64,000 nt of DNA from Centroscyllium fabricii (lineage: Eukaryota), in the NCBI GenBank assembly GCA_051313645.2, contig JBNRSN020000009.1, positions 98,890,001 to 98,954,000 of the forward strand. Direction: 5' to 3'. Positions 4,234 to 62,598 of the stretch are shown here, one piece after another. The notes beneath the pieces were generated by a model. That model saw only the letters and a list, made by a program, of their open reading frames with translations, was not told the DNA's origin and did no database searches. How positions within the stretch are numbered: position 1 is the first letter of the stretch; each line of letters begins with the position of its first letter. Position numbers and translations under genes: made by a program.

Positions 4234-7200
4234 CTATGTGTGCCGTTGGGGTGGCCGGATGATGCGGCCGGACCGTGTTGCATGTTGCTTCTGGTTCTGC
4301 GGTGGAGTGTGGGCGGGTTTTGTTGCGGGAGGGCGACCGCGTTGTGATGGTTGTGCGGGGACAGTCGTCTCACCCGCTATAACGTGTGCCGGCTTGAGCC
4401 GGTCTATTGTCACAGTTTCAGTCCTGTTGCCCATTTGCAATTCGAAAGCTTTAGCTCCCGCCCGAAGCACTCTGTAGGGGCCATCGTAAGGTGGCTGTAG
4501 TGGAGATCGGTGTCCGTCGCGCCGGACGAACACGAATTTAGCGTTTTTGATGCCGTCCGGCACCCGAGCTGCCGGCTCTCCATGCCGGGCCACTGGTAGT
4601 GGCTGGAAAGCTCGTGCCGGGTTGGCGAAGTCTTTTAAATACTGGTCGGCTGACCAGGGAGCGTTGGGCTCGGCTAGGAACTCGCCCGGCACTGTTAAGG
4701 CTTGGCCGTAGACGAGTTCTGCTGCCGAGGCATTGAGGTCTTCCTTGACTGCCGAGCGCAGCCCGAGGAGAACCCATGGGAGACGGTCGGTCCACGACGC
4801 GTCCTTGAGGGTGGCTCGTAGTGACGCCTTCATTGAGCGGTGGAACCGTTCGCATAGCCCGTTCGCTTGTGGGTGGTATGCGGTGGTTCGATGTAGTGTT
4901 ACCCCGAGGTCGCGGGCGATGGCCGCCCATAACGCTGACGTGAACTGGGGTCCTCTGTCGGAGGTGATGTCGGTGGGCACGCCGAAGCGGGCGACGCAGG
5001 TGGCGATGAACGCCCTGGCCAAGTCCGTGGTGCCGGTGGCGGTGAGGGGGACTGCTTCTGGCCAGCGAGTGTTGCGGTCGACCATGGTCATTACGTGCGT
5101 GTGGCCCCGGGATGGCGGTAGTGGCCCGACGAGATCAATATGGACGTGGTCAAAGCGTCTGGCCGGCACTTTAAAAGTTTCCAGCGGTGCCCTGATGTGC
5201 TTATGCACTTTGGAGCGCTGGCAGGCAATGCAGGAGCTGGCCCAGGCGCGAACGTCCTTGCGCAGGCCGCGCCATACGAACCGGGCCGAGATTAATTTGA
5301 TGGACGCGCGGGTGCCGGGGTGGGACAGGTCATGGAGGGTCCTGAATATGTGTCGCCTCCAAGCGTGGGGGACGACGGGCCTGGGCTGCGGCAGGGATAC
5401 GTCGCAGCAGACGATGGTGGCAGCGGGGCCGTGCGCGATATTGGCCAAGTGGAGGCCAGGGAGATTTGCTGCTGCGTTGAGCAGGTCTGGGTCAGTCAGC
5501 TGGTCTGCGGCCAGCTGGGCGTAATCGACCGCCATTTGGGCGGCGTTAATGGTGGGGCGTGAGAGGCAGTCAGCGACCACGTTGTCGCGGCCGGAGATAT
5601 GTTGGATGTCGGTCATAAATTCCGACACGGCCGCGAGTTGGCGCTGCTGCCTGGCCGACCAGGGTTCGGCGACCTTAGCCATCGCAAACGTGAGCGGCTT
5701 ATGGTCGACGAAGGCTGTGAAGTGGCGGCCCTCCAGGAGGAAGCGAAAATGTCGCACTGCCAGATGGAGAGCGAGGAGCTCCCTATCAAAGGCGCTGTAC
5801 TTAACCTCTGGGGGCTGGAGTTGCCGGCTGAAAAAGGCCAGGGGCTGCCAGGAGTTGCCGGTCCACTGCTCAAATACGGCCCCGACCGCGTGGTCGGAGG
5901 CGTCGGTGGTGAGGGCTACTCTGGCGTTGGGCCTAGGGTGGGCTAGGAGGGTGGCATTTGCCAGGGCGGTTTTAGTTGCGGTGAAGGCGGTGGCGGCGTC
6001 GGCCGTCCACTCGACCGCAGCCTTGTTGGACTGCCCGCGGGTGGCCTGGTATAAGGGGGCCATGAGAGCGGCTGCTCCCGGGATAAATCGGTTATAAAAA
6101 TTGACCATCCCCAGGAATTCCTGCAGCCCTTTAATGGAGTGCGGGCGGGGGAATTCCTGTACCGCCTGCACCTTGGAGGGCAGGGGTATGGCCCCTGTTT
6201 GGGAAATGCGGTGGCCGAGGAAGTCAATGGTATCGAGGCCGAATTTGCACTTGGTCGGGCTTAATATAAGGCCGTGTTCGGCCAGGCGTTGGAACAGGGT
6301 CCTGAGGTGCAGGAGGTGTTCCTGGGGGGAGGTGCTGGCCACGAGGATGTCGTCTAAATAGACGAAAATGAACTTCAAGTCCCGCAGGACCGAGTCCATG
6401 AGGCGCTGGAAGGCCTGGGCCGCGGTTTTAAGGCCGAAGGGCATCCTGAGGAACTCGAAGTGCCCGAAGGGGGTGATAATGGCCGTTTTAGAAATGTCCG
6501 CCGGGTGCACCGGAACCTGGTGGTAGCCACGCACCAGGTCGATCTTAGAGAAGATCGTACAACCCGCTAATCTGGTGGAAAAATCCTGGATGTGGGGTAC
6601 GGGGTACCTATCCGGGGTTGTGGCGTTGTTTAGGCGGCGGTAGTCGCCGCAGGGGCGCCAACCCCCGTCTGGCTTGGGGGCTATGTGGAGAGGAGAGGCC
6701 CAGGGGCTGTTGGAGCGGCGGATGATGCCGAGTTGCTCCATGGTGCGGAACTCTGTGCGCGCGATCTCCTGCTTGGCCGGGTCGAGCCTACGGGCGTGGG
6801 CATGGACGGGAGGTCCTGTGGTCATAATAAAGTGTTCCACCCCGTGTTTGGCCTGGCGGGCGGTGAACGTGGGGTTGGTTAGGGCGGGGAACTCTGCCAG
6901 GAGCGTGCCGTAGGCATCGGAGTCCCGGGAGCGGCATTGGGCTGCCGCGTGGGCCACGAGTGTGGGCCCTGTGGCGCATGGGATGGTCGTCATGTTATTC
7001 ATGTTGACCAAGCGGCGCCAGGTCACATCGGCCAGCAGGCCGTAGGCGCAGAGGAAATCTGCCCCGAGGAGGGGTGAAGTGACCTGGGCTGTGACGAAAT
7101 CCCAGGTGTACGTGTGGCTTGCAAGAGTAATTGTGAGCTTGCGGGTGCCGTACGTTTTGATACTGGAGCCGTTGGCCGCTGCGAGTGGCGGGCCCCGGGT

Positions 7201-7347
7201 GCCTTGTTTGGTTTCTGCAGGGGAGGCTGGCACGATGCTGTGCTGCGCGCCTGTGTCGCAGAGGAACCTAAGGCCTGTGCCTCTGTCTGTAACAAAGAGC
7301 AGTGCTCCTGTGTGGCCTACAGACATAGTGGGGGCTTGAACGCGCAT
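4234..7347 (-). CDS. pol: Pol polyprotein (protease, RT, RNase H, integrase with GPY/F motif), intact
   Basis: 1037-aa ORF with FLCDTGA protease, YLDD RT, TDAS RNase H, HHCC plus D,D35E integrase (HIDLVGP...SDRG...CER) and PPYDGPY. Confidence 0.96.
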
Positions 7348-8045
7348 GGCTGGACGCAGCGGTGCGCTTTGTTATCGAACCGCGTGTGGTAGTAGCACCA
7401 GCCGGTGCTAGAGGGACGCGGTTGCCTAGGTGGGCGCGGGGCCCTAGGTTCAGGCGTAAAGTTAGGCCTGGGGGGTGATTGGGCGCACTCTACCGATGCA
7501 GAGTTAGGGTCGCACGTGGTTGAGCGGGTGCGCTGCGCCTCCATGAGCCTGTCGGCTTCCTCAGCGAGCTCGTCGTCGCTCCGTTGGCCAAGGGCCGCCA
7601 AGGCCGGTCTGATGGAGCGGGGCAGTTTAAGGAGGAAGACGGTGCGGAACAGGGAGGCCGGATTGGGTGTGAGCGCTTGCATCTGACCTAAGAGGTCCGA
7701 TGGGTCTGCGTCCCCGAGTTCGGGGAGGTCAAGGAGCTGGCAGTCGCGCTCAAATTGAGAGGGGATAAAAAAAATTATAAGCGCGGCCTTAAGGGCTTCG
7801 TACCTGCCTGTAGTGGGCACACGCTGTATTTTTGACCACATCCGATCGATCGTCGATTGCGGTAGGGCTGAGAACACCAGGTCGTAGCGGTCGTCCCCCT
7901 GGATGCCATGTGTGCGGCAGCTGGTCTCGATGCACATAAACCAGGCCGCTGGCCGTTGCTCCCAGAACTCGGGTAGAGTTAGTCCACGTCCGAAGTTCTG
8001 GCCAAGTCCTTGTGTTCGTGGAGCTTGGTTCCTTGCTCTTGCCAT
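7317..8045 (-). CDS. gag: Gag with CHCC zinc knuckle
   Basis: LPEFW...P.AWF N-terminus and [18 protein letters not shown] (C-X2-H-X9-C-X3-C), typical of the CsRn1 clade. Confidence 0.92.
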
Positions 8046-8122
8046 GTTTTCTGTTTAAAATGTTCTTTGGCTGGTGGTCCCTGATCCTGCGGCAGCTTTT
8101 CTTCTTTGGAATTCGTTCCAAT

Positions 8123-21135: not shown

Positions 21136-23618
21136 ATGCAGAGTATATAAGGGTTTCTGTTCACTTGGGCTGTGAAAAAACAGATTCAATACTTTTCCAA
21201 CATAGGGAAGATTTCCTCTGAGCAATAAATGTGGAAAAAATGTAAATGCATTCTTTATAAACACATTTACGATTCAGTACAAATAGCACACAGAGGAAAT
21301 CTTTTCACCAGAAAATTTGATTATGACTTCTGATTTTTCCAAATAGTCATGCACATTGAAAATGTTTTACAGTAGGGAAGAGCTTGAAACCAAGAATATC
21401 ACTCTGCCCTGATAATGTATCAATAATTAAAGAGAATCTGAAGGCCTTTACTAATCAAAACAGATTAATGCTCATTTTGTGCTAAGATTGTATGTACCTC
21501 TGCAACTATCAAACCCCAAGGGTCTCAGAAAAAACCTCTGCCAAGATGGAAAAACATTTTAAACAATTTTCATTTTTTTGTAAAGAAATATGCACCAAGG
21601 CAATTCAATCTAAAATATTAGACTGGTCCTACTGGAGTGGTAAAGCTATTTAATGATAGTCTCTATTGGAGATATGTATTGAATTATGGGCATAAACTCA
21701 CAAACAACAGAAATGTGAGAAATTAGGTTTATTTGAAGGTGGCTGCCTATACACAACCCTTAACCTAGCAAGCCTTTTTATACCAATAGATCCCACACTC
21801 TTATTGACAGGGACAAACTATCCTTTGCTGGTGAGTGAACAGTGATAAAAATTGGATTTCTTTCTTTGCCCAATTTATATTATTAAAGGTTAGATCTGGC
21901 ATTAAGTGTGTATCAGTCATCCACTGTTAGAACATTTTGACACTTTCAATGCATTCTACACTTTATTCTGTCATACACTGTTGTGTTGTAAAATTTCTGA
22001 TTATTTCAATGCTTAAATTCATTGGCCTAGAAATTGCAGTAGGCCAAAATCCTGCCGATGCTACCGTGGGACGAAGTTAACGGCTGCCCGAAATAATAGT
22101 GCAGGCAGCACTGGATTTTGGTGCTGCCTGCTAAATAAATTAGCGCAAGGCTAAATCTACCATGCAAGACTGATTTTCCGATGCTGCTCTCAGCAGGAGT
22201 CCCAATGTAGCATGGCCGAAGCAAGAGCAACGTCATCCTAAAGCAAGACTGTCATTTTAGAAAGCAGTGTCTAAAATTAAGAAAATAAAAATCATTTTAA
22301 AATAGGCAGTTTTTAGCCCTTAGAGTTCAACTGCTTTCTGAAATTTGAAAAAAATAATTCCCAAATTGCAGTCTTCAGCTCTTAAAGCTGAACTGCCATC
22401 CGCACCTAGATAAAAGTAAAAGTGTTTCTGCACTAACGCAAATTGCCCACCAAGCCTGGGCGGGGTACCCAGGGTCTTGCAGGCAGCACTCCAGATTTGT
22501 GCAGGGGGTCAACACTACAAGAGAGATCCTTTGCCAGAAAGAAGGATGTGTGACCACATCACCAAGGCCATTACTGCCAGCAGTGTCAGTCCCACGACCT
22601 GGCTCCAGGGCCCAAAGAAGCTTCATGACCTCAAACCAGTAGTCAAGGTCAGTGAATGCATCTTCAAAAGCCATCTCCTACCAATTACACCACTAACCTC
22701 ACATGCTGCTCATAGCACGGCTGCCCCCACCACCCCCATCATTCACCAACCAACAATCTGCACCAAACACAAGGCAGACCTCCCATTCATAGCTTCACCT
22801 CACCCCCTTGGAGGAGATGGTGCTGGCTATTCTTGGTAGGGACAAGGCTGAGCTCTTGGCCAGCAGTGGGGCTGAAAGGATACAAGATGCTGGTATCCTC
22901 ATATGTTATCCTCCTTCTCACATCCTACTTCACCCTCATACCACAATATCTTCTGATTTACATGGTGTGCTGGTGTAAACATGTGAAGGGATATTCACTA
23001 GTCCTAGCCCCTTTAGTGCTAGCCCGGATCAGGCGTATTTCTCAGACGTTCACTTTCAACTAAAGTTTGAGGTAGCTGAATCCTAAAGAGGCTTAATTGG
23101 GTCTAAATGTCTGGACTATCTCTCCATAAAGGAAAGGAACAACCTGAAAATGTTACCGTCCTCCAGACAGCACTTTTAATAAGTTTAACTAGACTGTAAC
23201 GTTTTGGATATTATGAGGGTCCAGAAAACTCCCCCAAAATTCTGCAACCCCTCACCAAAGAGTGTACAGAGATTGAGTTTGCAAGTTTGCAACAGAGGTC
23301 TTATGTGAGACAATTCTAAAAATATATAGGTTTATTAAAGAACCGACATGCAGTTTACAGTTGTTGAGTCAATCGTAACATTAACCTTATTGTGTTTTTA
23401 CAGAGCTAAAAAAAACAGAGGTCAAAAACTCGGAGGAACAAGCAACGGGCAAGGAACCAGGGAGGCCACAACTGGACTCAGGTAAGACACTCTGTTAAGG
23501 CGTAACCGGTAAGTATATCTTTAACTATATCTATATAACTGTGTATATACTTATTATAATTTAGCAGAGATACAGTAGAGACAGAGTAGTCTAAGTCTAC
23601 TAGGGATTTAGGAGAAAA

Positions 23619-24575
23619 ATGGGAGACATAGTGCAGGCCGTCGCGGTCATGTGCTCCACCTGTAGCATGTGGGAATTCAGGGACCCAACCGGGGCCCCTG
23701 ATGAACACGTATGCAGGAGATGCATCTATCTGCAGCTCTTAGCCGACCGCATAACGGTGCTAGAGCGGCAGATGGGGTCATTGTGGAGCGTGGGCAACGA
23801 CGAGCAGGTCGTGGATAGCACGTATGAGAGAGTGGTCACACCAAAGACTAAAATAGACCAGTCAGAAGAAGTATGGTTGACCACCAAGAAGAGGGCCAGA
23901 GCGAGGAAGGAAGAGCAGGGAACCCCTGGGGCCGTCCCCCTGTTCAACAAGTATACCGCTTTGGATACTGTGGGGGGGGACGACCCGCCAGGGGAGGGCG
24001 GCAGCAGCCTACCTCCAGGCACTGGGGGTGCTGGGGCTGCCCAGAAAGGGAGGGAAACTAGTGTGCCAGCAGTAGTAATAGGGGATTCAATTGTAAGGGG
24101 CACAGAGAGGCGGTTCTGCGGCCGTGGACGTGACACCAGGATGGTTATTTGCCTCCCTGGTGCCAGGGTCCGGGATGTCACGGAGCGGCTGCAGGGCATC
24201 TTGAGGGGGGCAGGGGACCAGGTAGAAGTTGTGGTCCACATTGGCACCAACGACATAGGAAAGCAGGGGGACGAGGTCCTGCAAAGTAAATTTAAAGAGC
24301 TAGGTGAGAAGCTAAAAAGCAGGACCCCAAAGGTTGTAATCTCTGGATTACTCCCAGTGCCACGAGCTAATGAGTACAGGAACCGTAAGATAGAGCAGCT
24401 TAATTCGTGGCTAAAAGATTGGTGTAGGAGGGAGGGTTTCAGCTTTTTGGATAATTGGTCTTACTTCTGTGGAAGGTGGAACCTATACACGCAGGACGGA
24501 TTGCACCTGAACCAGAGGGGGACCAATATCCTTGCGGGAAGGTTTGCTAGCCGGGTTGGGGTGGGTTTAAACTAA
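23619..24575 (+). CDS. CR1 ORF1p (zinc finger/coiled coil + SGNH esterase domain)
   Basis: CSTC...CRRC, then VIGDSI, HIGTND and DGLHL SGNH blocks. Confidence 0.92.
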   Translation: MGDIVQAVAVMCSTCSMWEFRDPTGAPDEHVCRRCIYLQLLADRITVLERQMGSLWSVGNDEQVVDSTYERVVTPKTKIDQSEEVWLTTKKRARARKEEQGTPGAVPLFNKYTALDTVGGDDPPGEGGSSLPPGTGGAGAAQKGRETSVPAVVIGDSIVRGTERRFCGRGRDTRMVICLPGARVRDVTERLQGILRGAGDQVEVVVHIGTNDIGKQGDEVLQSKFKELGEKLKSRTPKVVISGLLPVPRANEYRNRKIEQLNSWLKDWCRREGFSFLDNWSYFCGRWNLYTQDGLHLNQRGTNILAGRFASRVGVGLN

Positions 24576-24598
24576 TTTGGCAGGGGGAGGGGACCCAG

Positions 24599-27487
24599 AT
24601 GGAAGGTATAATGGATAGGGGAACACAACCTAATAAAGGAAAGCAGACTAGACAGCAAAACAAGGTAGTTTTAGGACAGAGAATGAAAGGCATATACTTT
24701 AACGCAAGGAGTCTGACTAACAAAGTGGATGAGTTAAAGGTATTGGTTGACTCATGGGAATATGATATAGTAGCTATCACGGAGACGTGGCTGAAAGAGG
24801 GGCAAGAATGGCAGCTAAACATTCCGGGGTATAGAATTTTCAGGCGGGACAGGGACGAGGGTAAAAGGGGAGGGGGGGTAGCGATACTGATTAAGGATTC
24901 AATCACAGCCATTAGGCGGGTCGACCTAATGGACGAATCCTCAAACGAGGCACTATGGGTGGAGGTAAAAAATAAAAAAGGGGGGGGCACCTTACTGGGA
25001 GTATATTATAGACCACCAAACAGTAAAGGGGAGGTAGAGGATAAGATATGTGAACAAATTACGAAGATTAGTGAAAATAATAAAGTAACAATACTAGGGG
25101 ACTTTAATTTCCCCAATATCAACTGGGAGAATCAAAGTGTGAGGGGCACGGATGGTTCAGCATTCTTACAATGCAGCCAAGATAATTTTTTGAAACAATA
25201 TGTGGGGTCACCTACAAGGGGGGGGGCGGTACTAGACCTAATACTTGGGAACGAGGACGGGCAGATAGAGGAGGTAACAGTGGGGGAGCACTTCGGGGAT
25301 AGCGACCACAATTCAGTTAGTTTCAAGATTGTAATGGAGAAAGATAAAAATGGACCAGGGGTAAAAATACTTAACTGGGGGAAGGCGGATTTCAATAAAA
25401 TTAGGAACGATGTAACCGCAGTAGATTGGGGCCATCTCCTCAGAGGAAGATCTGCATCAGAGCAGTGGGAGGCCTTCAGAGGGGAAGTCGGGAAGATACA
25501 GGAGGAACATGTTCCTGCAAAAATTAAGGGTGGGGGAGACAAACAAAGGGAACCTTGGATGTCTAGGGATATATGTAAACTAATGAAGAAAAAAAGGGGG
25601 GCTTTTAACGAATATAAACGGCTAAAAACTGAGGAGGCACTAGGGGAGTATAAGAAATATAGGGGGGATTTAAAGAAGGAGATAAGAAAAGCCAAGAGAG
25701 GTCATGAGATTACAATGGCCAGTAAAATCAAGGATAACCCTAAGGCATTTTATAGTTATATAAAAAACAAAAGGATCACGAGGGAAAGGGTGGGGCCCAT
25801 AAAAGACGATAGCGGAAAGCTGTGCGTCGAGCCCGAGGAGGTGGGGGAGGTACTAAATGAATTCTTCTCTTCAGTATTCACAAGAGAGAGGGACGATACC
25901 GACATCGAAATCGGACAGAGTGTAGGGGGGGTAATTGAGGATATTACCATTACAAGGGAAGAAGTTCTAGAAATCTTGGGAGGCTTAAAGGTGGACAAAT
26001 CACCAGGGCCGGACGCAATGTTCCCCAGGCTGCTGTTCGAGGCCAGGGAGGAGCTTGCGGGCCCCCTGTCTCAAATCTTCAGGACCTCTCTCGCGTCAGG
26101 GGATGTGCCTGAGGACTGGAGAACGGCTAATGTAGTACCCTTGTTTAAAAAGGGTAGTAGGGACAAACCGGGCAACTACAGGCCAATCAGTCTTACATCT
26201 GTAGTGGGGAAAGTAATGGAAAAAATTCTGAGGGATAAAATCAGTTCGCATTTGGACAACCAAGGTCTAATAAGAGACAGTCAGCATGGCTTCGTCAAAG
26301 GTAAGTCGTGCCTGACCAATCTGTTGGAATTCTTCGAGGAAGTAACAAAGAGGGTGGATGAAGGGAGTACTGTGGACGTAGTATATATGGACTTTAGCAA
26401 AGCTTTTGATAAAGTCCCACATAGGAGACTAATAACAAAGGTTAGAGCGCACGGGATACAGGGTAACTTGGCACAGTGGATCGAAAACTGGCTGGGGGAT
26501 AGGAGACAAAGGGTAATGGTAGAGGGCTGCTTCTGTGACTGGAAACCAGTAACCAGTGGCGTCCCCCAAGGATCGGTTTTGGGACCCTTACTGTTTCTAG
26601 TATACATCAACGATTTGGATATGGGAGTAGGGGGTACAATCAGCAAATTCGCTGATGATACGAAAATCGGAAGGGTGGTAAACAACGATGAGGATAGTAA
26701 GGGGCTTCAGGAGGATATAGATATAATGGTTAATTGGGCAGAAAAATGGCAAATGGAGTTCAACCCAGAGAAATGCGAGGTCATTCAATTCGGTAGACCA
26801 AATGGGGTAAGGGAATATACCATGAACAACAAAACGTTAAATAGGACCGAGGAGCAGAGGGACCTGGGGGTACAGGTGCACAGCTCCCTGAAGGTTGCTG
26901 GACACGTTAACAAGGTGGTTAAGAAGGCATACGGAATCCTCGCCTTTATTAACCAGGGCATAGTATACAAAAGTAGGGAGGTAATGTTAAACCTGTATAA
27001 CACACTGGTGAGACCTCAGCTGGAGTACTGTGTGCAGTTCTGGTCACCGCACTACAGGAAGGATGTGGCTGCCCTGGAGAGGGTGCAGAGAAGGTTTACC
27101 AGGATGATACCTGGTCTGGCGGACCTATGCTACGAGGAAAGGCTGGACAGGCTGGGGTTGTTTGCCTTGGAGAAAAGAAGGTGGAGGGGTGACATGATTG
27201 AGGTGTACAAGATCATGAGGGGACACGATAGGGTAGACAAAGGGGCATTGTTTCCCCTGGTGGGAGAGTCAAGCACTAGGGGACATAGATTCAAGATCAG
27301 GGGGGGGAGGTTTAGGGGGGAGGTAAGGAGAAATTTCTTTACCCAGAGGGTGGTGGAAGACTGGAACTCCCTGCCTGTGAGGGTGGTGGAGGCAGGAACC
27401 ATCACAACATTTAAAAAATACTTGGACCAGCACATGAAGGACCATAACATACAGGGTTATGGGCCAGGTGCGGGCAACTGGGGTTAG
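24599..27487 (+). CDS. CR1 ORF2p (APE endonuclease + reverse transcriptase)
   Basis: 962 aa with NARS, ITETW, GDFN and SDH endonuclease motifs, GVPQGSVLGP, FADD and the RRNFFTQRVV C-terminus. Confidence 0.96.
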   Translation: MEGIMDRGTQPNKGKQTRQQNKVVLGQRMKGIYFNARSLTNKVDELKVLVDSWEYDIVAITETWLKEGQEWQLNIPGYRIFRRDRDEGKRGGGVAILIKDSITAIRRVDLMDESSNEALWVEVKNKKGGGTLLGVYYRPPNSKGEVEDKICEQITKISENNKVTILGDFNFPNINWENQSVRGTDGSAFLQCSQDNFLKQYVGSPTRGGAVLDLILGNEDGQIEEVTVGEHFGDSDHNSVSFKIVMEKDKNGPGVKILNWGKADFNKIRNDVTAVDWGHLLRGRSASEQWEAFRGEVGKIQEEHVPAKIKGGGDKQREPWMSRDICKLMKKKRGAFNEYKRLKTEEALGEYKKYRGDLKKEIRKAKRGHEITMASKIKDNPKAFYSYIKNKRITRERVGPIKDDSGKLCVEPEEVGEVLNEFFSSVFTRERDDTDIEIGQSVGGVIEDITITREEVLEILGGLKVDKSPGPDAMFPRLLFEAREELAGPLSQIFRTSLASGDVPEDWRTANVVPLFKKGSRDKPGNYRPISLTSVVGKVMEKILRDKISSHLDNQGLIRDSQHGFVKGKSCLTNLLEFFEEVTKRVDEGSTVDVVYMDFSKAFDKVPHRRLITKVRAHGIQGNLAQWIENWLGDRRQRVMVEGCFCDWKPVTSGVPQGSVLGPLLFLVYINDLDMGVGGTISKFADDTKIGRVVNNDEDSKGLQEDIDIMVNWAEKWQMEFNPEKCEVIQFGRPNGVREYTMNNKTLNRTEEQRDLGVQVHSSLKVAGHVNKVVKKAYGILAFINQGIVYKSREVMLNLYNTLVRPQLEYCVQFWSPHYRKDVAALERVQRRFTRMIPGLADLCYEERLDRLGLFALEKRRWRGDMIEVYKIMRGHDRVDKGALFPLVGESSTRGHRFKIRGGRFRGEVRRNFFTQRVVEDWNSLPVRVVEAGTITTFKKYLDQHMKDHNIQGYGPGAGNWG

Positions 27488-27941
27488 TACAGGGAGGAGT
27501 TTTCCTGGGCCGGTGCGGACTGGATGGGCCGAATGGCCCTTATCCGCACTGTAAAATTTCTATGATTCTATGATTCTATGATTAACAGTTCCAAAAAGAG
27601 AAAGCTTACAATCTTATTATCAGAGAACCTTAGTTTCAAATCTTAACTTTGCTACGGTTTTACAGTTCTTAAAGTTCTACAGGATATCCACCAAAATCAA
27701 ATACCTTTGATCCCCAAGGTACAAAGAGTTGGAGACTTACAGAGCTGCCTCTGAAGCCGAGAATCGCTTTGCCCCTTTAAAGCAATTCTGTTATCCCATT
27801 TGAGAGTTAAATATTTATACCCTTTCCCAGTGGTATTTCCTTTAAGGTTTTTTGCTGATGTAAGCTAATTATCTCTAGTCGTTTTTCTGCTGACCCCTGC
27901 AATTCTTACAGTCACCTCAGCTAGTAGCATTTCAGAATTTT

Positions 27942-38789: not shown

Positions 38790-41700
38790 ATAGAAACATA
38801 GAAATATAGAAAATAGGTCCAGGAGTAGACCATTCGGCCCTTCAAGCCTGCACCGCCATTAGCACGTTCATGGCTGAACATGCTACATCAGTACCCCATT
38901 CCAGCTTTCTCGCCATATCCCTTGATACCCCCTAGTTGTAAGTATTACATCTAACTCCCTTTTGAATATATTTAGTGAATTGGCCTCAACAACTTTCTGT
39001 GGTAGAGAACTCCACAGGTTCACCACTCTCTGGGTGAAGAAGTTTCTCCTCATCTCGGTCCTAAATGGCTTACCCCTTATCCTTAGTCTGTGCCCCCTGG
39101 TTCTGGACTTCCCCAACAATGGGAACATTCTGCCCGCATCTAACCTGTCTAAACCCGTCAGTATTTTAAACGTTTCTATGAGATCCCCCCTCATGCTTCT
39201 GAACTCCAGAGAGTACAAGTTCAGTTGATCCAGTCTTTCTTGATATATCAGTCCGGCCATCCCGGGAATCAATCTAGTAAACCTTTGCTGCTCTCCCTCA
39301 ATAGCAAGAATGTCCTTCCTCAAGTTAGGAGAGCAAAACTGCACACAATACTTCAAGTGTGGCCTCACCAAGGCCCTATACAACTGTAGCAACACCTCCC
39401 TACTCCTGTACTCAAATCCCCTCGCTATGAAGGCCAACATGCCATTTGCTTTCTTAACTGCCTGCTGTACCTGCATTTCCACCTTCAGTGGCTGATGTAC
39501 CATGACGCCCAGGTCTCGTTGCACCTCCCCTTTCCCTAATCTGTCACCATTCAGATAATAGTCTGTCTTTCTATTTTTACCACCAAAGTGGATAACCTCA
39601 CATTTATCCACATTGTACTTCACCTGCCATATATTTGCCCATTCACCTAACCTGTCCAAGTCACTCTGTAGCCTCTTAGCAACCTCCTCGCAGCTCACAC
39701 TGCCTCCCAATTTAGTGTCATCCACAAATTTGGAGATACAACTGTGATAAACCACTATGTATATATTTGTATCATATCCATGGCCTGTAGTATTGTGTAT
39801 ATAGTTCTCTGTGTACTGCTTGTCTGGGCATGCCCGTGCTGACTCCGCCTGTGACTCCTCCTCCCAGGATAGGTATAAAGGTAACTGTCTCCCTCCCCCT
39901 GATCATTCCGGGAGCAGTCGACTAGCTGAGGCATGCCCAAGCTTTAGCGAATAAAAGCCTTTATTCACCACGTAACTTCTCGGTTATTGATAAGGTATCA
40001 ATTTTATTCGCTAAATTTAATCATGGAGACCATGCTAAAACCAGCGACGTTAGAACTGGATCCCCAAACACCAGGCGCCTCTAACACGTTTACGCACTGG
40101 TTCAACTGCTTCGAGGCGTACCTCGAAGCCACCGCGGCGATCGTCCAGACGGAAAGGGACAAGCTGCACCTTCTCAACACCCGGGTGGGCCCCCAGGTGT
40201 ACTCAATAATCGCGGACGCTACGTCCTACACTGAGGCGTTCCGAATCCTGAAGGCCGAGTATACCCGGGCACCGAACATCGTCCACGCCAGACACCTTCT
40301 GGCCAGCAGAAAGCAACAACCCGGGGAATCGAGCGTGGAGTTCCTACGAGCGCTGAGAGTCCTCTGCCGGGCCTGCAACTGTAAGGCACAGTCAGCCTTG
40401 GTGCACTCTGAAAGCCTCATCAGGGACGCTTATGTCACTGGCCTCAGGTCCGATTATATTCGCCAGAGACTGTTGGAGCAGAATGGCATGGACCTGCAGG
40501 CGACGATTGACCTTGGGAATGCGCTGGACTTGGTGTCCCATAATATGGCCGCTTACTCGGCCGACCACGCGGGCACATCGCGGACGCCGCCATCTTGGAC
40601 ACAGCCGGCCGCACCGCGACCAGCGGAAGAGATGACTGCGGCTACAACCTCAAAAGGGCCAAAGTGCTACTTCTGCGGCCAGGCCCAGCACCCCAGGCGA
40701 AATTGCCCAGCAAGAGACGCGGCCTGCTCCAAGTGCGGGAAGAAGGGCCACTATGCGAAGGTATGCAGAGCGGCGGCACTATCGTCCTCCAAACCGGGCA
40801 GCGCCGCGTGTGGCCCGTGGGGGCAGCCATCTTGGACACAGCCATCTTCCACAAAGCCCGCCGCGTGGGAGCAGACGCCATCTTGGACACGGCCATCTTC
40901 CACACAGCCTGCCGCGTGGCGGCAGCCATCTTGGGACCAGGCCCCAGACATCTCAACGACTCGACCGACCCGATACTGGCCTCCATCACACTCGAACAGA
41001 ACAGGAGCCAGCCACTGAGCAAATCAATGATGACGGTACAGGTGAACGGGCGGAGTATGGATTGCCTTTTCGACAGCGGGAGTACGGCGAGCTTCATACA
41101 CCCTGATACGGTAAAGCGCTTCTCCCTAACGGTCATGCCGGCTAGCCAAAAAATTTCGATGGCGTCAAAGTCCGAATCTGCGGACGTCTGCGGTCGCTGC
41201 GTAGTGACCCTGACAGTGCGGGGCACGCACTTCCAGAATTTTAAATTATTCATGCTGCCGCAGCTCTGCGCTCCCTTACTGCTGGGCCTCGACTTCCAAT
41301 GTCACCTCCAGAGCTTGACGATGGCGTACGGTGGGCCCCTTCCCCCGCTCACGGTCAGCAACCAGCGCTCCCCGCAGTGCCCACAGCGCGCTACCTGCGG
41401 TCTCTCGACCCTTAAGGTCGCCCCTCCCTCACTCTTCGCCAACCTCACCCCGGACTGCAAACCCGTCGCCACCAAGAGTAGGCGCTACAGTACCGGGGAC
41501 AGAGACTTCATCAAGTCTGAGGTGAAACGGCTCCTGAAGGAGGGGGTCATCGAGGCAAGTAATAGCCCCTGGAGGGCACAGGTAGTAGTTGTAAAGACCA
41601 GAGCCAAGCACCGGATGGTCGTTGACTACAGTCAGACCATTAACCGGTTTACGCAGCTAGATGCATATCCCCTCCCCCGCATAGCGGATATGGTGAACCA

Positions 41701-44275
41701 GATCGCCCAGTATCGGGTCTTCTCGACCATCGATCTGAAGTCTGCGTACCACCAGCTCCCCATCCGCTCAGAGGACCGCCACTATACTGCTTTCGAGGCA
41801 GACAGCCGCCTCTATCACTTTCTCAGGGTTCCGTTTGGTGTCACCAATGGGGTCTCGGTCTTCCAAAGGGAGATGGACCGAATGGTTGATCAGTACGGAC
41901 TGCGGGCCACCTTTTCGTATCTCGATAATGTTACCATCAGCGGCCACGATCAGCAGGACCATGACACCAACCTCCAGAAATTTCTCCACACCGCCAAAAA
42001 TTTAAACCTGACTGATATCACGGAAAAATGTGTGTTCAGGACAACCCGCCTCGCCATCCTCGGCAGTGTTGTGGAGAATGGGGTCATCGGTCCCGACCTG
42101 GACCGCATGCGCCCCCTCCTGGAGCTTCCCTTCCCCCACTGCCTCAAGGCCCTGAAAAGGTGTCTGGGCTTCTTTTCATAGTATGCCCAGTGGGTCCCCA
42201 ACTACGTGGACAAGGCCCGCCCACTACTCAAATCAACCTCCTTTCCTCTGTCGGCAGAGGCCCGCACGGCCTTCTGCGGCATAAAACAGGATATTGCAAA
42301 GGCCGCGATGCAGGCTGTGGACGAGTCCATCCCGTTCCAGGTAGAGAGCGATGCGTCCGACTTTGCCCTGGCCGGCACCCTTAACCAGGCGGGCAGACCC
42401 GTGGCCTTCTTCTCGCGCACCCTCCAGGGCCCCTAAACCCGACACTCTTCCATTGAGAAGGAGGCCCAGGCCATTGTTGAAGCAGTGCGACACTGGAAGC
42501 ACTACCTGGCCGGCAAACGATTTACCCTGCTGACTGACCAACGCTCAGTCGCGTTCATGTTCAACAACAGAGAGCGGGGTAAAATCAAGAATGACAAGAT
42601 ATTGAGGTGGAAAATTGAGCTCTCTGCTTTCAATTATGATATCTTGTACCGGCCCGGGAAATTCAATGAACCCACAGATGCCCTGTCCCGCGGTACATGT
42701 GCCAGCGCACAAGTGGACCGTCTCCAGACCCTGCACAACGACCTCTGCCACTCGGGTGTCACCAGGTTCGTTCACTTTATCAAGTCCCGCAACCTCCCCT
42801 GCTCCATCGAAGAGGTCAGAACCATGACCAAGAACTGCCGGGTCTGTGCGGAGTGCAAGCCGCACTTCTTTCGGCCGGATTGGGCACATCTGATTAAGGC
42901 CACCCGCCCCTTTGAGCGACTTAGCATCGACTTTAAAGGGCCCCTCCCCTCCTCTAACCGCAACACGTACTTTTTAAATGTCATTGACGAGTACTCGCGT
43001 TTCCCCTTCGCCATCCCCTGCCCTGACATGACCTCCTCCACGGTCATCAAGGCACTGCACAGCATCTTCTCCCTGTTTGGCTACCCCAGCTACATCGATA
43101 GCGACCGGGGAGTCTTTTTTATGAGTGACGACCTGCGTCAGTTCCTGCTAGCCAAGGGCATCGCCACGAGCAGGACTACCAGCTATAACCCCCCGGGGAA
43201 CGGACAGGTAGAGAGGGAGAACGCCACCATCTGGAAGGCCATCCTATTAGCCCTACGGTCTAAAGGCTTCCCAGTCTCCCGCTGGCTGGACGTCCTCCCC
43301 GAAGTGCTCCACTCCATTCGGTCACTTTTATGTACGGCCACTAACGCCACCCCTCACGAGCGACTTTTTGCCTTCCCTAGGAAGTCGGCTTCAGGGACCT
43401 CGCTGCCGTCATGGCTATCGTCCCCGGGAGCATGTGAGGGGCCATAAGTCGGAACCCTTGGTCGAACAGGTCCACCTCCTGCACGCCAACCCCCAGTATG
43501 CCTACGTGGCGTACCCTGACGGGAGGGAGGACACGGTGTCCATCAAGGACCTGGCACCCTCGGGTGCCCCCGAGGCCAGTACGACCCATCAGCCCGCATC
43601 CCCACCCCTGCATACCGCCACCTTTGGTGCACCAGCACCACGGTACGTCATACCCCTCGAGGCGCCGGCACCAGCACCACGGTACGCCCACCCAGCACCT
43701 GCAGGCAGCACGGTATGGCCCCCTAACCTACGCACCCACCAGCCGGATGACGAATGGGAGAGTGCGCCAGTGATTGTTACCGCAAGGGGCCCCGCATCGG
43801 ATTAAATGCTCTCGCCGACCCCGCCGTCGCCGACTCCACTGCCAACAGTGCGCCCGCTGACTCCACCGCCAGCGGTGCGCCGCTCGACAAGGCAGACCAG
43901 GCCGCCCGACAGACTTAACATTTAACGATTGCATAGCATTCGCCCCGCCGGACTTTATTTTTTCACAAGGGGTGAATGTGGTAAACCACTATGTATATAT
44001 TTGTATCATATCCATGGCCTGTAGAATTGTGTATATAGTTCTCTGTGTACTGCTTGTCTGGGCATGCCCGTGGTGACTCCGCCTGTGACTCCTCCTCCCA
44101 GGACAGGTATAAAGGTAACTGTCTCCCTCACCCCGATCAATCCGGGAGCAGTCGACTAGCTGGGGCATGCCCAAGCTTTAGCGAATAAAAGCCTTTATTC
44201 ACCACGTAACTTCTCGTTTCTGAGGTTATTGATAAGGTATCAACAACATTTAATCCCTTCGTCCAAATCATTAAT
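38790..44275 (-). mobile_element. 5'-truncated CR1, split by a Gypsy insertion
   Basis: ORF 38883..39755 (ISKFVDDTKLGG...) continues at 44243-44275. Tail at ~38790. Confidence 0.88.
39743..44242 (+). mobile_element. Gypsy family B full-length copy 1 (defective)
   Basis: LTRs 39743-40000 and 43977-44242, TSD ACAAC. Gag with two CCHC from ATG 40023. Protease LFDSGS, RT YLDN, RNase H SDAS, integrase. In-frame stops at 42179 and 42434, plus frameshifts. Confidence 0.95.
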
Positions 44276-48312: not shown

Positions 48313-51300
48313 TGACGTATCGTCAATCAAACACGAAAGACGAGTAGTTACCCAAACTACAGGCTTTTATTCACTTACAATGGAGCTAGTCTCCTGTCGA
48401 GTTCAAGGCGAGAATGAGCGGGGGCAGGGCAGCCCTCACCTATTTGCTCCCACCTGAGGGGAGGAGTTAGAGGTGTGGCTGACCTGGCCTTGCATACAAT
48501 ATACAGTGTCAAAGGTGAGCACATCCATATATACACTGGTAATACGGTTACTATATACACTGGTAATACGGTTACCACATTCACCCCTTCTTTAAAAACA
48601 AGTCCGGCGGGGTGAACGAGAGAAGAAGAAGAAAACATTTTTTAATATGTCCGTTAGACGCAATCAACACTGCGCTATTAGTCTCTCTGGCAGTCGCGTC
48701 TGCCTCGAGGACCGCCGGGGTGCCGGTAAAGGTGGTGGTGCCGGTTGCAGGGCCGGGATCGGGTTCTCCGCCAACGGTGCCGGCGGTGAGGTGTCCGATC
48801 CCGGGTCGTTGATCGGAGGTGTTGATGGCCCCGGTGTGTGTATGTATGGGGGCCAGTATTCGGTGGGTGGTGGCTGGTCGGGCTGAGGCTCGACCGGGGG
48901 TTCTGCCCTAGTGCTCCCGGCGGGTGCCAGGTCCCTGATCGAGACAGTGTCCTCGCGCCCGTCCGGGAATGTCACGTAAGCATACTGCGGGTTGGCGTGG
49001 AGCAGATGCACCCGTTCCACCAGCGGTTCAGTCTTGTGGGCGCGGACGTGTTTCCTAAGCAACACCGGCCCCTGCGTTGTGAGCCACAGCGGGAGTGCTG
49101 TCCCTGAAGTCGACTTCCTGGGGAAGGAAAATAACAGGTCGTGAGGTGTTGAATTAGTAGCGGTACACAACAGAGAGCGGATGGCATGGAGTGCGTCTGG
49201 GAGGACCTCCTGCCAACGGGAGAATGGAAGGCCTCTGGACTTCAGGCCCAGGTTGACCGCCTTCCTGATGGTCCCGTTCGCGCATTCTACCTGGCCGGGG
49301 TTTGTAACTGGTCGTTCTGCTTGAGGCAACCCCTTTCTGAAGCAGAAACTGACGCAGTTCGTCGCTCATGAACGACGACCCCCGGTCGCTATGGATGTAA
49401 CTGGGGAGACCGAAAATGGCGAACAGCGTGGTGAAGTGCTTGATCACAGTTGCGCTCGTCATGTCTGGGCAGGGGAAGGTGAAGGGGAAGCGTGAGAACT
49501 CGTCTATGACCGTGAGGAAATACGAGTTGTGGTCAGTGGAGGGGAGGGGGCCTTTGAAGTCCATGCTCAGGCGTTCAAAGGGGCGGGTGGCCTTGATGAT
49601 GTGCGCCGTGTCTGGCCTGTAAAATTGGGGTTTGCACTCGGCACAGACAGGGCACTTTTTGGTCATAGCCTTTATCTCCTTGATGGAGTAGGGGAGGCTA
49701 TGGGATTTGACGAAGTGGGTGAGTCTGGTGACACCCGGGTGGCAGAGGCGATCGTGGAGGGCCTTCAGCCGGTCAAGCTGGGCGCTGGCGCACGTTCCCC
49801 TGGACAGTTCATCCGGGGGTTCGTTCAGTTTGCCTGGACGGTAAAGAATGTCGTACTCGTAAGTCGAGAGCTCGATCTGCCACCGCAGGATCTTATCATT
49901 CTTGATCTTACCCCGTTGTTTATTATTAAACATAAACGCCACAGACCGTTGGTCGGTGAGCAGGGTAAAACGCTTACCGGCCAGTTAATGACGCCAGGTA
50001 ATGACTGCCTCCACGATGGCCTAAGCCTCCTTTTCCACCGCTGAGTGGCGAGTTTCGGGTCCCTGTAGGGTCCGGGAGAAAAACGCTACGGGCCTGCCTG
50101 CCTGGTTTGTTTCGGGTCCCTGTAGGGTCTGGGAGAAAAACGCTGCGGGCCTGCCTGCCTGGTTCAGGGTGCCGGCAAGGGCGAAGTCCGAAGCGTCACT
50201 CTCCACCTGGAAAGGGATGGACTCATCAACGGCATGCATGGTTGCCTTGATGATGTCTTCCTTAATCCGAGCGAATGCCATTTGGGCTTCTTCCGAGAGG
50301 GGGAAGACGTCGGCCTTGAGGAGAGGTCTGGCCTTATCTGCGTACTGGGGGACCCATTGCGCGTAATAAGAAATGAACCCTAGACATCTCCTCAGGGCTT
50401 TGGGGTTGTGAGGTAAGGGCAGCACTTGCAAGGGGTGCATACGCTGTGGGTCGGGGCCGAGGACCCCGTTTTCCACCATGTATCCGAGGATAGCAAGCCA
50501 ATCCGTACTAAAGACACACTTGTCCTTATTGTACGTGAGATCCAGCCGTTTCGCCGTGTGCAGGAATTTGGCGAGGTTGGCATCGTGGTCCTGCTGGTCA
50601 TGGCCACAGATGGTCATGTTGTCCAGGAAGGGGAAGGTGGGCTGCAACCCATTCTGGTCAACCATACGGTCCATCTCCCTCTGGAACACCGACACTCCGT
50701 TGGTCACACCGAAGGGGACCCGGAGGAAGTGGTAGAGCCGGCTGTTCGCCTCGAAGGCGGTGTACTGGCGGTCGGATTTCCGGATGGGGAGTTGGTAATA
50801 TGCTGACTTGAGGTTGATTGTGGAAAAGACCTTGTACTGGGCGATCTGGTTTACCATATCCGAGATGCGGGGGAGGGGGTAGGCGTCGAGCCCGGTGTAG
50901 CGGTTAATCGTCTGGCTATAGTCGATGACCATGCGCAGTTTCTCGCCCGTCTTAACCACTACGACCTGGGCCTGCCAAGGGCTGGTGCTGGCCTCAATGA
51001 TCCCCTCTTGCAGCATATGCCCAACCTCCGACCTGATAAACGCCCGGTCCCCTGCACTGTAACGCCGACTTTTGGTAGCAATGGGCTTGCATTTGGGGTC
51101 GAGATTGGCGAACAGTGAGGGGGGGTCGACTTTTAATGTGGACAGGCCGCAAGTCGAGCTCCGCTTTAATTAGGGATTGTCCCGGCTACTGACGGTGAGG
51201 GGGGCCAGGGTTCCACCGAAATCCATCGTCACGCTCTTCAGGTGGCACTGGAAATCCAGTCCCAGTAAGACTGGGACGCACAACTGCTGGAGGATGTACA

Positions 51301-53191
51301 ACTTAAAATTGCGGTAGATGCAGTCCCTGATCGTGAGCGTGACGCTGCAGTAGCCGGTGACGTCCGCCGTGTGGGACTTTGAGGCAAGGGAGATTTGGTA
51401 ATGCGTGGGCTGGGTTCACAGTGCGTAGCGCCGCACTGTGTCGGGGTGTATAATTGTCTCTGTTCTACCGGTGTCGAACAGGCAGTTAGTGACGTGCCCG
51501 TCCACCTTAATCTCCATCGTGGAGTTGGACAAGGTGTGCAGCCGAGCCTGATCGACAGTGGCTGAGGCCGAGGTGTATGTGTGTGAGTGGGGGCCCTCCG
51601 CTAGCTGGGGCCCCGGCCGGGGCAGTTGGCAAGATGGCCGCTCATAAGATGGCGGCGCTGGCGATGCGCTCGAGTCCGGCTGCTGTGGATAAGATGGCGG
51701 TGCCCGTGGTTCACACGCGGCCGACCGTGGTGGACAAGATGGCGGCGCCCGTGGTTTGCACGTGGCCGACCGCGGTGGACAAGATGGTGGCACCGGGGGG
51801 TCGCACATGGCCGACCGCTGAGGATAAGATGGCGGCGCCCGTGGTTCGCACGCGGCTAGCCGTGGTGGACAAGATGGCGGCGCCAGGGGGTCGCATATGG
51901 CCGGCCGCTGTCGATATGATGACGGCGCCGGGGGGTCGCATATGGCCGGTCGCGGTGGCGTTTGGAGTGGCGGCGCCTGTGCCGTGCGCGCGGCCGGCCT
52001 CCGCCGTACAGTTAAGGGGTACTGAGGCACCCGCGCTTTACCCCCGGCTGACCGCTGCTGGGTCGCGCTGCAACACCGTACCTTGGGCCATGGAGTGGCA
52101 TCGCTATTTTCACAGGCCGTGCTGTTGGGTCTGGAGGTGGAGGTGGAGGCTGGGCTGGACTTGCACACCTTCGCGAGGTGCCCCTTCTTCGCGCACCGCT
52201 CGCAGGTCGCGTTCCTCGCGGGGCACTACACCCGCGGGTGCTTCCCTTGGCTGCAGAAGTAGCATCTGTGCCCCGCCAGTGTCTTCGCAGCCGCTGCTGC
52301 TATCGTGGGGGTCTCGGCCTGTCGCGGTGTCACCCAGGGGTCAGGGGTATCGTGTGGGCCGTGGTCTCCGTACGCCTCCAGCTTTCGTAGCGCTCCATCT
52401 ACCGCATTAGAAAGAGTTATTGCGGACTCGAGCGACAGTGTGTCCTGCTCCAGCAGCCGCTGGCGGGCCTGGCTGGACCTGAGTCCAGCCACATATGCAT
52501 CCTGGATTAGGAGGTTCGCTTCTTCCTCCACCGTCCTTGGCTGGCAGTCGCAGGCCTGTGCGAGGACTTGAAGCGCTAGTAAGAACTGTTCGTTGAACTC
52601 ACCGAGTCGTTGTCGTCTGGTCGCCAGAACATGCCTGGCATAGACCGAGTGGGCCGGGCGCATGTAGCAGTCCTTTAGTTTTTTCACCACTTCCCCGTAC
52701 GTCTTGAGGTTGCGGATAAAGGAATAAACCCGGCCGCTGATCCGTGATGAGAGTACCTGGAGTTTGTCCTCATCACTTGTAGCCTTCACGGCCTTCATGT
52801 AGGCCTCGACCAGGCCAAACCAGTGTTCGATGTTGTTATCAGCATCGGGTGCCTGAGGATTGATGTCGAGGCGACCCGGTGTCACTACATTACTCTCCAT
52901 GTTTTAAAATTAAGTGAATAATATTGACATATCGTCAATCAAACACGAAAGACGAGTAGTTACCCAAACTACAGGCTTTTATTCACTTACAATGGAGCTA
53001 GTCTCCTGTCGAGTTCAAGGCGAGAATGAGCGGGGGCAGGGCAGCCCTCACCTATATGCTCCCACCTAAGGGGAGGAGTTAGAGGTGTGGCTGACCTGGC
53101 CTTGCACACAATGTACAGTGTCAAAGGTGAGCACATCCATATATACACTGATAATACGGTTACTATATACACTGGTAATACGGTTACCACA
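48313..53191 (-). mobile_element. Gypsy family B full-length copy 2 (defective)
   Basis: 267-bp LTRs 48313-48579 and 52925-53191 (about 6 mismatches), TSD CCTTC. Gag 52226..52900, protease LFDTG, RT FLDN, integrase. Frameshifts, stops and a tandem duplication in RNase H. Confidence 0.95.
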
Positions 53192-61584: not shown

Positions 61585-62598
61585 ATGGGTGAGCAGGTGA
61601 TGTGTTACTGCTGTGAGATGTGGGAGTTCGTGGAGAGGATTGATGCTCGAGGTGACTACATTTGCAGCAAGTGTTTATTGCTCCAGGAACTCCAGCTTCA
61701 TGTTGATGAGCTGCATTCTGAGCTTCAAACACTGCGACACATCAGGGAAGGGGAGAATTACCTGGACTTTAAGTTGCAGGAAACAGCCACACAAAATAGA
61801 TTAATTGACTTAAATGTAGATCATGGCCAGGGACAGGATGGTGTGACTATAAATGAGGCAGGTACGGGAATCAAGGCGGTAGTGTTGGAGGAGCCACAGA
61901 CCTTGCTCTTGTCCAACAGGTTTGAGGCTCTTACTCCCTGTGGGGGTGGGAGCGGGGACTGTGGAGAGGATGAGCAACCTGGCCACAGCACCGTGGAGCG
62001 GAGGGCCATTCAAGAGGGGGGAGTTAATAGAAATGTTGTAGTGGTAGGGGACAGTATCATCAAGGGGATAGATAGAGTTCTCTGCAACCGAGAGCGGGAG
62101 TCCCGAAGGCTGTGTTGCCTGCCTGGTGCAAGGGTTAAGGACATCTCTTCTGGACTGGAGAGAAACTTGCAGTGGGAAGGGGAGGATCCACTTGTCCTGG
62201 TACATGTTGGTACCAACGACATAGATAAGACAAGGAAGAAGGTTCTGTTACAGGAGTATGAGCAGCTAGGGGTCAAACTAAAAAACAGAACCTCAAGGGT
62301 AATAATCTCTGGGTTATTACCTGAGCCACGAGCGAATTTGGATAGGGTAAATAAAATTAGGGAGTTAAATGCGTGGCTCAAAGACTGGTGTGGGAGAATT
62401 GGGTTTTGCTTCTTGGGACACTGGCACCAGTACTGGGACAGGGGAGAACTGTTTCGGTGGGACGGGCTTCACCTGAACCAGGCTGGGACCAGTGTCCTGG
62501 GGAATCGTATAACTAGGGCTGTAGAGAGGGCTTTAAATCTAATTAGTTGTGTGGAGGTTTCTAGAGAGCAAATAAATAAAATGACACTGGAGAAGTAG
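61585..62598 (+). CDS. CR1 ORF1p (zinc finger + SGNH esterase) of a 3'-truncated element
   Basis: CYCC...CSKC, VVGDSI, HVGTND and DGLHL. The native end RALN is read through into flanking DNA. Confidence 0.9.
   Translation: MGEQVMCYCCEMWEFVERIDARGDYICSKCLLLQELQLHVDELHSELQTLRHIREGENYLDFKLQETATQNRLIDLNVDHGQGQDGVTINEAGTGIKAVVLEEPQTLLLSNRFEALTPCGGGSGDCGEDEQPGHSTVERRAIQEGGVNRNVVVVGDSIIKGIDRVLCNRERESRRLCCLPGARVKDISSGLERNLQWEGEDPLVLVHVGTNDIDKTRKKVLLQEYEQLGVKLKNRTSRVIISGLLPEPRANLDRVNKIRELNAWLKDWCGRIGFCFLGHWHQYWDRGELFRWDGLHLNQAGTSVLGNRITRAVERALNLISCVEVSREQINKMTLEK

Follow-up and report, generated by a model that had tools for sequence, protein, structure and literature searches.

The stretch analysed here comprises 64,000 nucleotides of Centroscyllium fabricii DNA (GenBank assembly GCA_051313645.2, contig JBNRSN020000009.1, positions 98,890,001 to 98,954,000 of the forward strand; hereafter the window) and carries a full-length, young long interspersed nuclear element (LINE) of the CR1 clade, in which the second open reading frame (ORF2) is probably expressed by programmed −1 ribosomal frameshifting at the end of the first (ORF1). 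The element, which belongs to the group that we designate family 3, is flanked by a 6-bp target-site duplication (ATTAAC at 23380-23385 and 27581-27586), ends in a short tandem tail at its 3' side and has no long terminal repeats (LTRs). Copies recovered from the genome (7.2 Gb searched) align from ∼23382 to 27583 with a median identity of 99.4%, and an empty-site joint (23379 to 27581) is present in contigs of two runs. ORF1 encodes N-terminal Cys pairs, a coiled-coil-like stretch and an SGNH/GDSL esterase (PF13472, E = 1.7e-16), and the nearest named ORF1 proteins are those of sharks and rays. The −1 frame is open for 978 codons (24551-27487) and encodes an APE endonuclease and a reverse transcriptase (RT) (PF03372 and PF00078). 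Three features of CR1-clade LINEs with an esterase ORF1 are present (ORF2 with APE and RT, an SGNH-esterase ORF1, and a short tandem tail with target-site duplication), and we take the element to be a CR1 from its architecture, its 3' tail and our general knowledge of such elements.

Table 1. Coordinates, in window numbering, of the two CR1 elements and of the parts of their ORF1-ORF2 junctions.
Feature	Position	Strand	Remarks
Full-length young CR1-clade LINE (family 3)	23386..27580	+	Delimited by target-site duplication, copy alignment and empty-site joint
ORF1, 318 aa	23619..24575	+	Frame 23604-24575, ATG 23619; ends Leu-Asn-stop
Slippery heptamer U UUA AAC	24566..24572	+	In the X XXY YYZ phase of ORF1
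−1 frame linker, 41 stop-free codons, from slip site to first endonuclease motif	24572..24694	+	Contains non-conserved ATG 24599
ORF1 stop TAA directly 3' of heptamer	24573..24575	+	TAA, TAG or TGA in relatives
G5 run, +11 to +15 past heptamer, and second G run	24583..24592	+	Candidate stimulator (putative)
ORF2 core, APE endonuclease and RT	24695..27487	+	PF03372, PF00078
3'-truncated copy of the fused lineage	61585..62598	+	ORF1 stop-free into linker; homology ends ∼62595
Fused junction, heptamer U UUA AAU (62532-62538), one extra base relative to −1 relatives	62532..62546	+	TAG in −1 frame, 62544-62546

ORF1 of the intact element ends in GGT TTA AAC TAA (24564-24575), and the T TTA AAC heptamer stands in the phase required of a −1 slippery site, as the initial annotation had pointed out. 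Heptamer, stop and phase are retained in all 30 of the best-scoring family-3 copies. For a sample chosen independently of the junction, ORF1 ends were anchored on an esterase motif ∼70 nt upstream of it (27,167 matches), and the first 100 by position were taken; they fell into 19 clusters, six of which had five or more members. A stop codon was found 23-29 codons past the anchor in 83 of the 100 (TAA in 72, TGA in 7 and TAG in 4), preceded by TTTAAAC in 68 cases, by one-base variants in 8 and by frame-damaged or unrelated sequence in 7. The remaining 17 ends consisted of 13 with a fused form described below, two with a mutated stop and two that were unrelated. A pattern made of esterase motif, heptamer and stop matched 29,191 places genome-wide, compared with none for the reversed control, and 15 further loci obtained through a distant-protein search had TTTAAAC before the stop in 12 cases, with CTTAAAC, TTTAAAG and a damaged frame in one case each.

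The codons used at the junction were compared among 14 lineage representatives whose esterases share 22-83% identity (median 34%) and whose junctions were defined by the first stop rather than by the heptamer. Leu was encoded by TTA in 14/14 and Asn by AAC in 13/13, and these were the only invariant codons among 31 conserved columns, the commonest codon being kept in only 36-92% of the representatives at the other 29 degenerate columns. In addition, the codon preceding TTA ended in T in 12 of the 14 despite coding for Gly, Ser, Asp, Cys or Ala. Nucleotide conservation beyond coding need, by which programmed frameshift sites are recognized, is therefore present, and the junction Leu-Asn codons are likely conserved at the RNA level. 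A different view would be that the esterase protein needs a Leu-Asn end, that ORF2 is made through an internal start or on an RNA of its own, and that the slippery look is incidental. Such a need would suit the 87 distinct ORF1 endings that are Leu-Asn, as well as the second, A-to-T step that restored Asn in the fused lineage. It cannot, however, explain why TTA is used out of six Leu codons, why AAC stands in place of AAT, or why T occupies the preceding wobble position; moreover, Leu-Asn remains adjacent to the stop despite insertions of 6-13 residues, and Gly-Asn (GN) or Lys-Asn (KN) substitutes for it in distant relatives. We consider this explanation very improbable.

The junction was also followed beyond this genome. 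ORF1 homologues of sharks, rays and frogs have a Leu-Asn (LN) end in 43 of 44 distinct endings. Among 23 metagenome loci inspected (of 55 found), 11 reach the ORF1-end heptamer, which is TTTAAAC in ten that we take to be bird-type elements (followed by TAG or TGA in 8, TGC in 1 and AAG in 1) and GTTAAAC-TAG, read by eye, in the presumably invertebrate-type locus L167. Locus L169 has TTTAAAC-TAG, but its sequence stops before ORF2, and the rest of the inspected loci are cut short or belong to other kinds of element. A set of 146 distant ORF1 proteins provided 97 usable distinct endings, of which 62 are Asn (LN 44, GN 11, KN 2 and other 5); the 35 that do not end in Asn mean that some esterase ORF1s lack the signal. 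The residue before LN was one whose codons cannot end in T in just 1 of 44 endings (background 18%, p = 0.002), compared with 9 of 11 for GN (Fisher p = 8e-8), and GN was preceded by Gln in 9 of 11 and never by a residue whose codons cannot end in G. These endings and preferences, read from proteins, make up the pattern expected of X XXA AAC heptamers. Leu, Gly and Lys have little in common as residues, yet each has an XXA codon, in agreement with the heptamers U UUA AAC, G GGA AAC and A AAA AAC, all of them named among the shiftiest (PMC5009743; this and the other papers cited are drawn on for their accessible parts). No DNA of GN-ending relatives was found in viral or genome contigs, and the C. 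fabricii genome gave shark LN families only.

Two observations were made alongside these comparisons. The ORF1-type proteins P0008 and P0057, filed under a bacterium and a flatworm, are probably host contamination. In three metagenome esterase LINEs (L184:2880-2990, L201:700-760 and L203:3970-4030) ORF1 ends with TGA followed by CTG, presumably a readthrough-like context, and in L203 the endonuclease lies in frame 0 past the single TGA.

Many shark lineages, the bird-type elements and the one invertebrate-type element share the heptamer, the stop next to it and the −1 phase, but not the ORF2 ATG that had been expected to accompany them. Of 26 representatives, 21 had the endonuclease motif in the −1 frame and 2, both damaged, in frame 0; in 3 the motif was not found. 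The linkers, 35-91 codons long, hold 5 stops in the −1 frame versus 117 and 98 in the other frames. The −1 frame of the window element is indeed open and passes through the ATG at 24599, as first described; as a conserved ORF2 start this codon did not hold, since sister copies read AGT or ACG there. Met codons in the linkers are variable in position or absent. Families 2-5 have a linker Met, and in family 1, the commonest (24 of the 100 sampled ends), two copies with 984 open ORF2 codons lack a Met before codon 163, which lies beyond the first endonuclease motifs at codons 55 and 82.

Termination followed by reinitiation would make ORF2 a separate protein, either in an AUG-independent, L1-like manner or from a nearby AUG, with the heptamer and the G run serving as a cis signal. 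L1 ORF2 is thought to be AUG-independent (PMC5009743), SART1 uses UAAUG coupling (PMC3708506), and the linker Met of families 2-5 is in keeping with such a route. Stop-start coupling of the SART1 type was not seen in the representatives checked (no UAAUG or AUGA and no conserved AUG at the ORF1 stop), and a D(V/I)ExNPGP motif of the 2A (StopGo) kind was absent before APE in the linker translations. Reinitiation does not account for the X XXA AAC covariation, nor does it explain why the phase should be fixed at −1 when the linkers differ so much in length, or why the frame is open from the heptamer onward. We therefore regard it as unlikely, and frameshifting is preferred in what follows.

A lineage that has lost the ORF1 stop bears on the same question. 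The initial annotation had read the second CR1 of the window (62530-62545) as another slippery stop junction with ORF1 ending in RALN; there is no stop, ORF1 continues as RALN-LI, and the copy represents a fused form of family 2. When this second element was used as a query, many open frames of 1317 codons came up, and in each of six fetched fused copies a single ORF spans everything between the ORF1 start and the ORF2 stop and encodes esterase, APE and RT domains; these intact copies were picked by similarity, and none of the 22 full-length copies among 60 junction-picked family-2 loci is free of stops and indels. The fused protein reads Leu-Asn-Leu-Ile at the junction, the order expected from a two-tRNA −1 slip. 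Exact patterns matched 2,787 copies of the −1 form, 188 of the fused +A form and 861 of the fused +T form, so that the fused lineage has at least 1,049 copies; a wider pattern gave 1,155 fused copies, and all 100 of those listed look like one lineage. Median divergence from the group majority was 3.7% for the −1 form and 1.3% and 1.0% for +A and +T (20 position-picked copies each), which makes the fused forms younger than their −1 relatives. In a tree with family 4 as outgroup, the older −1 copies form a ladder, a young clade (99.9/100) takes in the 37 fused copies, and 19/19 +T copies group as a single clade (98.8/100) that arises from within the +A copies; rows with <1,500 aligned bases (7 of 65) were left out, and a smaller tree gave the same order.

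Fixed differences between +A and +T numbered 16 synonymous and 9 replacement in ORF2 (pN/pS 0.15, against private changes of 73:157, p = 0.003) and 8 synonymous and 8 replacement in ORF1 (0.29, against 17:58, p = 0.035). These ratios indicate that the fused element continued to multiply once the ORF1 stop had gone, with selection still acting on both ORFs and of the purifying kind in ORF2; judged by these substitutions, a single ORF1-ORF2 frame is compatible with continued copying. Because no stop remains at the end of ORF1 and yet ORF2 stayed under selection, termination-dependent reinitiation at that point cannot be the default route of this lineage. Most fused copies retain the U UUA AAA or U UUA AAU heptamer as well as the G run, and a −1 slip in them would meet a TAG two codons on and release a near-native ORF1 protein (ORF1p); the lineage is too young for the retained slip site to prove its use. 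Fused proteins elsewhere consist of the RefSeq model P0066 (a 594-aa partial fusion) and P0029, single stingray gene models seen as protein only, and no further fused protein was present among proteins of 722-2300 aa, which is a weak negative.

The fused lineage showed several other peculiarities. In a young +T subgroup (L032-L063 compared with L064 and L104; window 62548-62556) the G7 run is broken by a T, changing Gly to Val, which is possibly a sign of a relaxed stimulator after fusion; the break is present in just 2 of 20 position-picked +T copies. Copies L065 and L085, which are sisters in the smaller tree, have clustered A-to-G changes at the junction, and this suggests that ADAR-edited RNA was retroposed. 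Tandem AT-rich units with TATA-like and GC-box-like motifs lie upstream of the 5' untranslated region (UTR) of the fused element (window 61040-61290), and the 5' UTR itself contains one GGTAAG (∼61470). At ∼62595 the fused copy is cut by unrelated DNA, possibly a DNA transposon, with an open frame of 348+ codons (62957-64000) that gave no Pfam match.

The G-rich tract that had been noted behind the heptamer is present (GG at 24579-80, G5 at 24583-87 and G4 at 24589-92), and its position is conserved. In a set of 21 representatives, hand-chosen after clustering (13 shark, 7 bird-type and L167), 20 have G at every position from +11 to +15, of which two are wobble positions and one opens a codon that varies; behind the G5 comes a second G run. 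This run could stimulate slipping as a weak quadruplex or as a protein-binding site. Slippage by RNA polymerase or RT, rather than by the ribosome, might also be imagined to bring ORF2 into frame in some transcripts. The downstream G runs are length-unstable in families 2 and 5, and their slippage could rescue a frame-0 class of family 5 (see below). The G run lies past the stop, however, and slippage there thus cannot remove the ORF1 stop in the −1 families. As for the heptamer, T3A3 is short for polymerase slippage, which on general grounds disfavours this route, and contigs mapped to the window element (three contig sets, reporting DNA-type variation only) have no listed indel at the junction. 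We judge slippage of this kind to be highly improbable.

The junction might, finally, be a branch point and 3' splice acceptor (CTAAY ... AG/G) through which splicing from 5' UTR donors would produce an mRNA with ORF2 only. The intact element has two splice-donor-like GGTAAG sites in its 5' UTR (window 23480-23515), and AG stands before the G run in most representatives. Splicing is nonetheless extremely improbable in our view: no pyrimidine tract is present, the branch-like A is only ∼8 nt from the AG, family 1 has no start codon, and neither the heptamer nor the phase upstream of the AG is accounted for. Even in combination, protein constraint, polymerase slippage and splicing are quite unlikely.

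Several observations weigh against programmed frameshifting as the explanation. The lineages share ancestry, and the conservation counts are thus not independent trials. The GN and KN endings were read from protein sequences. No stable or conserved hairpin was detected in the 80 nt downstream of the heptamer in the 21 representatives (z from −1.6 to +2.6), and a conserved hairpin was accordingly ruled out as the stimulator, no notably stable fold being found in any of them. Folding that permits quadruplexes produced mostly two-tier structures; RNA quadruplexes are described to stimulate −1 frameshifting up to 7% and readthrough 1.5%, with an optimum spacer of 6-8 nt (PMC3919603), which the 10-nt spacer of the CR1 junction exceeds. 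Four −1 copies lie inside the young fused clade, near its base, and the +A step may thus have arisen or reverted more than once, while the four Met codons in the fused linker mean that ORF2 of the fused lineage could still start internally.

To these points is added family 5, the sole sampled shark family with a UGA stop. Among the first 100 of its 804 copies, counted by eye, the junction is in −1 phase with lengths of 45 nt (7 copies), 48 nt (40) and 54 nt (13); it is 49 nt long in 34, which places ORF2 in frame 0 behind the UGA with a strong-context AUG 15 nt (five codons) on. Other lengths make up 6 of the 100, and the +1 phase (47, 50 and 53 nt) occurs in 5. The 49-nt copies are young, with mostly open frames and no compensating indel before the endonuclease. 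In a tree built on ORF2 only (29 of 30 loci) they form two groups, one of which is the sister of the 54-nt class, and the 54-nt junction is the 49-nt junction with a 5-nt duplication that returns it to −1 phase. The length series in loci L322-L351 (48 to 49 to 54 nt) corresponds to a frame-0 subfamily that amplified before the 5-nt duplication restored the −1 phase.

A varying phase had been named at the outset as contrary to frameshifting. Such variation does occur in part, in one young family (family 5). The amplified frame-0 class means that a subfamily can amplify without the −1 phase; this class may be copied in trans, or may use UGA readthrough, AUG reinitiation or slippage in its A5 or G9 run. 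Its amplification with a strong-context AUG closely behind the UGA speaks for reinitiation, and against reinitiation stand the class carrying the 5-nt duplication, whose first AUG is out of frame and which was still amplified, and the low number of +1 copies among those listed. We lean towards reading the return to −1, together with the rarity of the +1 phase, as a need for a continuous product.

On balance, programmed −1 frameshifting that yields an ORF1-ORF2 fusion at the CR1 junction is the likely explanation, and the analogy to Gag-Pol drawn in the initial annotation is supported at the level of sequence by heptamer, stop and phase and by the fused lineage. Most ribosomes would terminate at the ORF1 stop and provide free ORF1p. 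A minority would slip back one base on U UUA AAC, with the neighbouring stop and the G run favouring the slip, and the endonuclease and RT would then be made as the C-terminal part of a fusion with a predicted length of ∼1,289 residues in the window family. We infer the slipping itself, its rate, the stimulation by the G run and the working of the fusion as an enzyme from the heptamer, its phase, the open −1 linker, the lack of a conserved start codon, the fixed spacing of the G5 and the one-base fused lineage.

A wider scheme can be put forward only tentatively, and we hold it to be somewhat doubtful as a whole. CR1 RT would be made only within a Gag-Pol-like polyprotein, through three interchangeable routes in one genome: −1 slipping in most families; a single ORF in family 2, where slipping on the retained U UUA AAU would end at a stop two codons later and yield free ORF1p, so that the ratio is inverted; and UGA readthrough in a subclass of family 5. 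The G5 at its fixed 10-nt spacer would be a protein-bound stimulator, a G-rich mirror of the C-rich motif of arteriviruses, and the signal would reach invertebrate CR1s with G GGA AAC and A AAA AAC.

The window also contains LTR-retrotransposon gag/pol frames at 4234-8054 (−), 39948-43805 (+) and 48664-52903 (−); the LTR-element frame at 4237-7371 matches protease, RT, RNase H and integrase.

Esterase-type vertebrate CR1s described earlier (PMC4120745, PMC3905857, PMC11835228) resemble the window element in having Cys pairs and an SGNH esterase in ORF1, APE and RT in ORF2 and a short tandem tail; the accessible parts of these papers give them two ORFs, with no mention of a frameshift or fusion. 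Single-ORF CR1/L2 subgroups (PMC4120745) have a PHD domain, whereas a whole esterase ORF1 is joined to ORF2 here. TRE5-A and TRE3-A of Dictyostelium are likewise APE-type non-LTR elements for which a −1 frameshift to ORF2 is stated, in a review statement only (PMC5911963); they differ in host and in ORF1. Frameshifting is also stated for HeT-A, and mammalian LINE ORF2 is ascribed to AUG-independent initiation (PMC5009743). U UUA AAC of the coronavirus IBV and retroviral gag-pol (PMC5009743) share with CR1 the heptamer and phase and the order of a structural or chaperone ORF followed by a −1 polymerase ORF. Unlike those systems, CR1 has no hairpin that we could find, a short G run as candidate stimulator and no protease to cut the fusion. 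The arterivirus PRRSV (PMC5009743) has a short unstructured motif, CCCANCUCC, 11 nt 3' of its shift site, and the CR1 G5 starts at +11; the PRRSV motif is C-rich and bound by nsp1beta/PCBP, whereas that of CR1 is G-rich, and a protein partner for it would be hypothetical.

Mammalian L1 and silkworm SART1 (PMC5009743, PMC3708506) are comparable in their bicistronic LINE RNA and low ORF2 output, but they reinitiate to give a separate ORF2 protein (ORF2p), whereas the CR1 frames overlap in −1 phase with no conserved start. Non-LTR elements with 2A (StopGo) sequences, which include members of the CR1 clade (PMC3708506), also show translational recoding near the ORF2 N terminus; 2A separates the products, and the linker of the fused lineage has no NPGP motif. 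The argument in that paper that ORF1 must be produced apart from ORF2 makes the fused lineage unexpected. LINE ORF2 translation has been called unclear, with a separate ORF2p as the working view (PMC3708506, PMC5009743). We found no description of CR1 frameshifting or ORF fusion in the accessible literature, including PMC4120745, PMC3905857, PMC4255032 and PMC11835228; most subscription papers and the original CR1 descriptions lie outside this scope, so that the overlap may have been remarked on before.

In birds CR1 is the principal repeat, amounting to 11.8% of the chicken assembly (PMC11835228), and it is very abundant in the genome analysed here. The fused lineage and the series of frame-0 and +5-nt junctions are natural experiments that offer ready-made controls for a reporter test. 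A conserved −1 signal, if true, would add a very large natural collection of frameshift sites in chromosomes, whose stimulator is unusual, and it would mean that these elements set the ratio of ORF1 product to RT in a retrovirus-like manner, with the RT tethered to the ORF1 particle.

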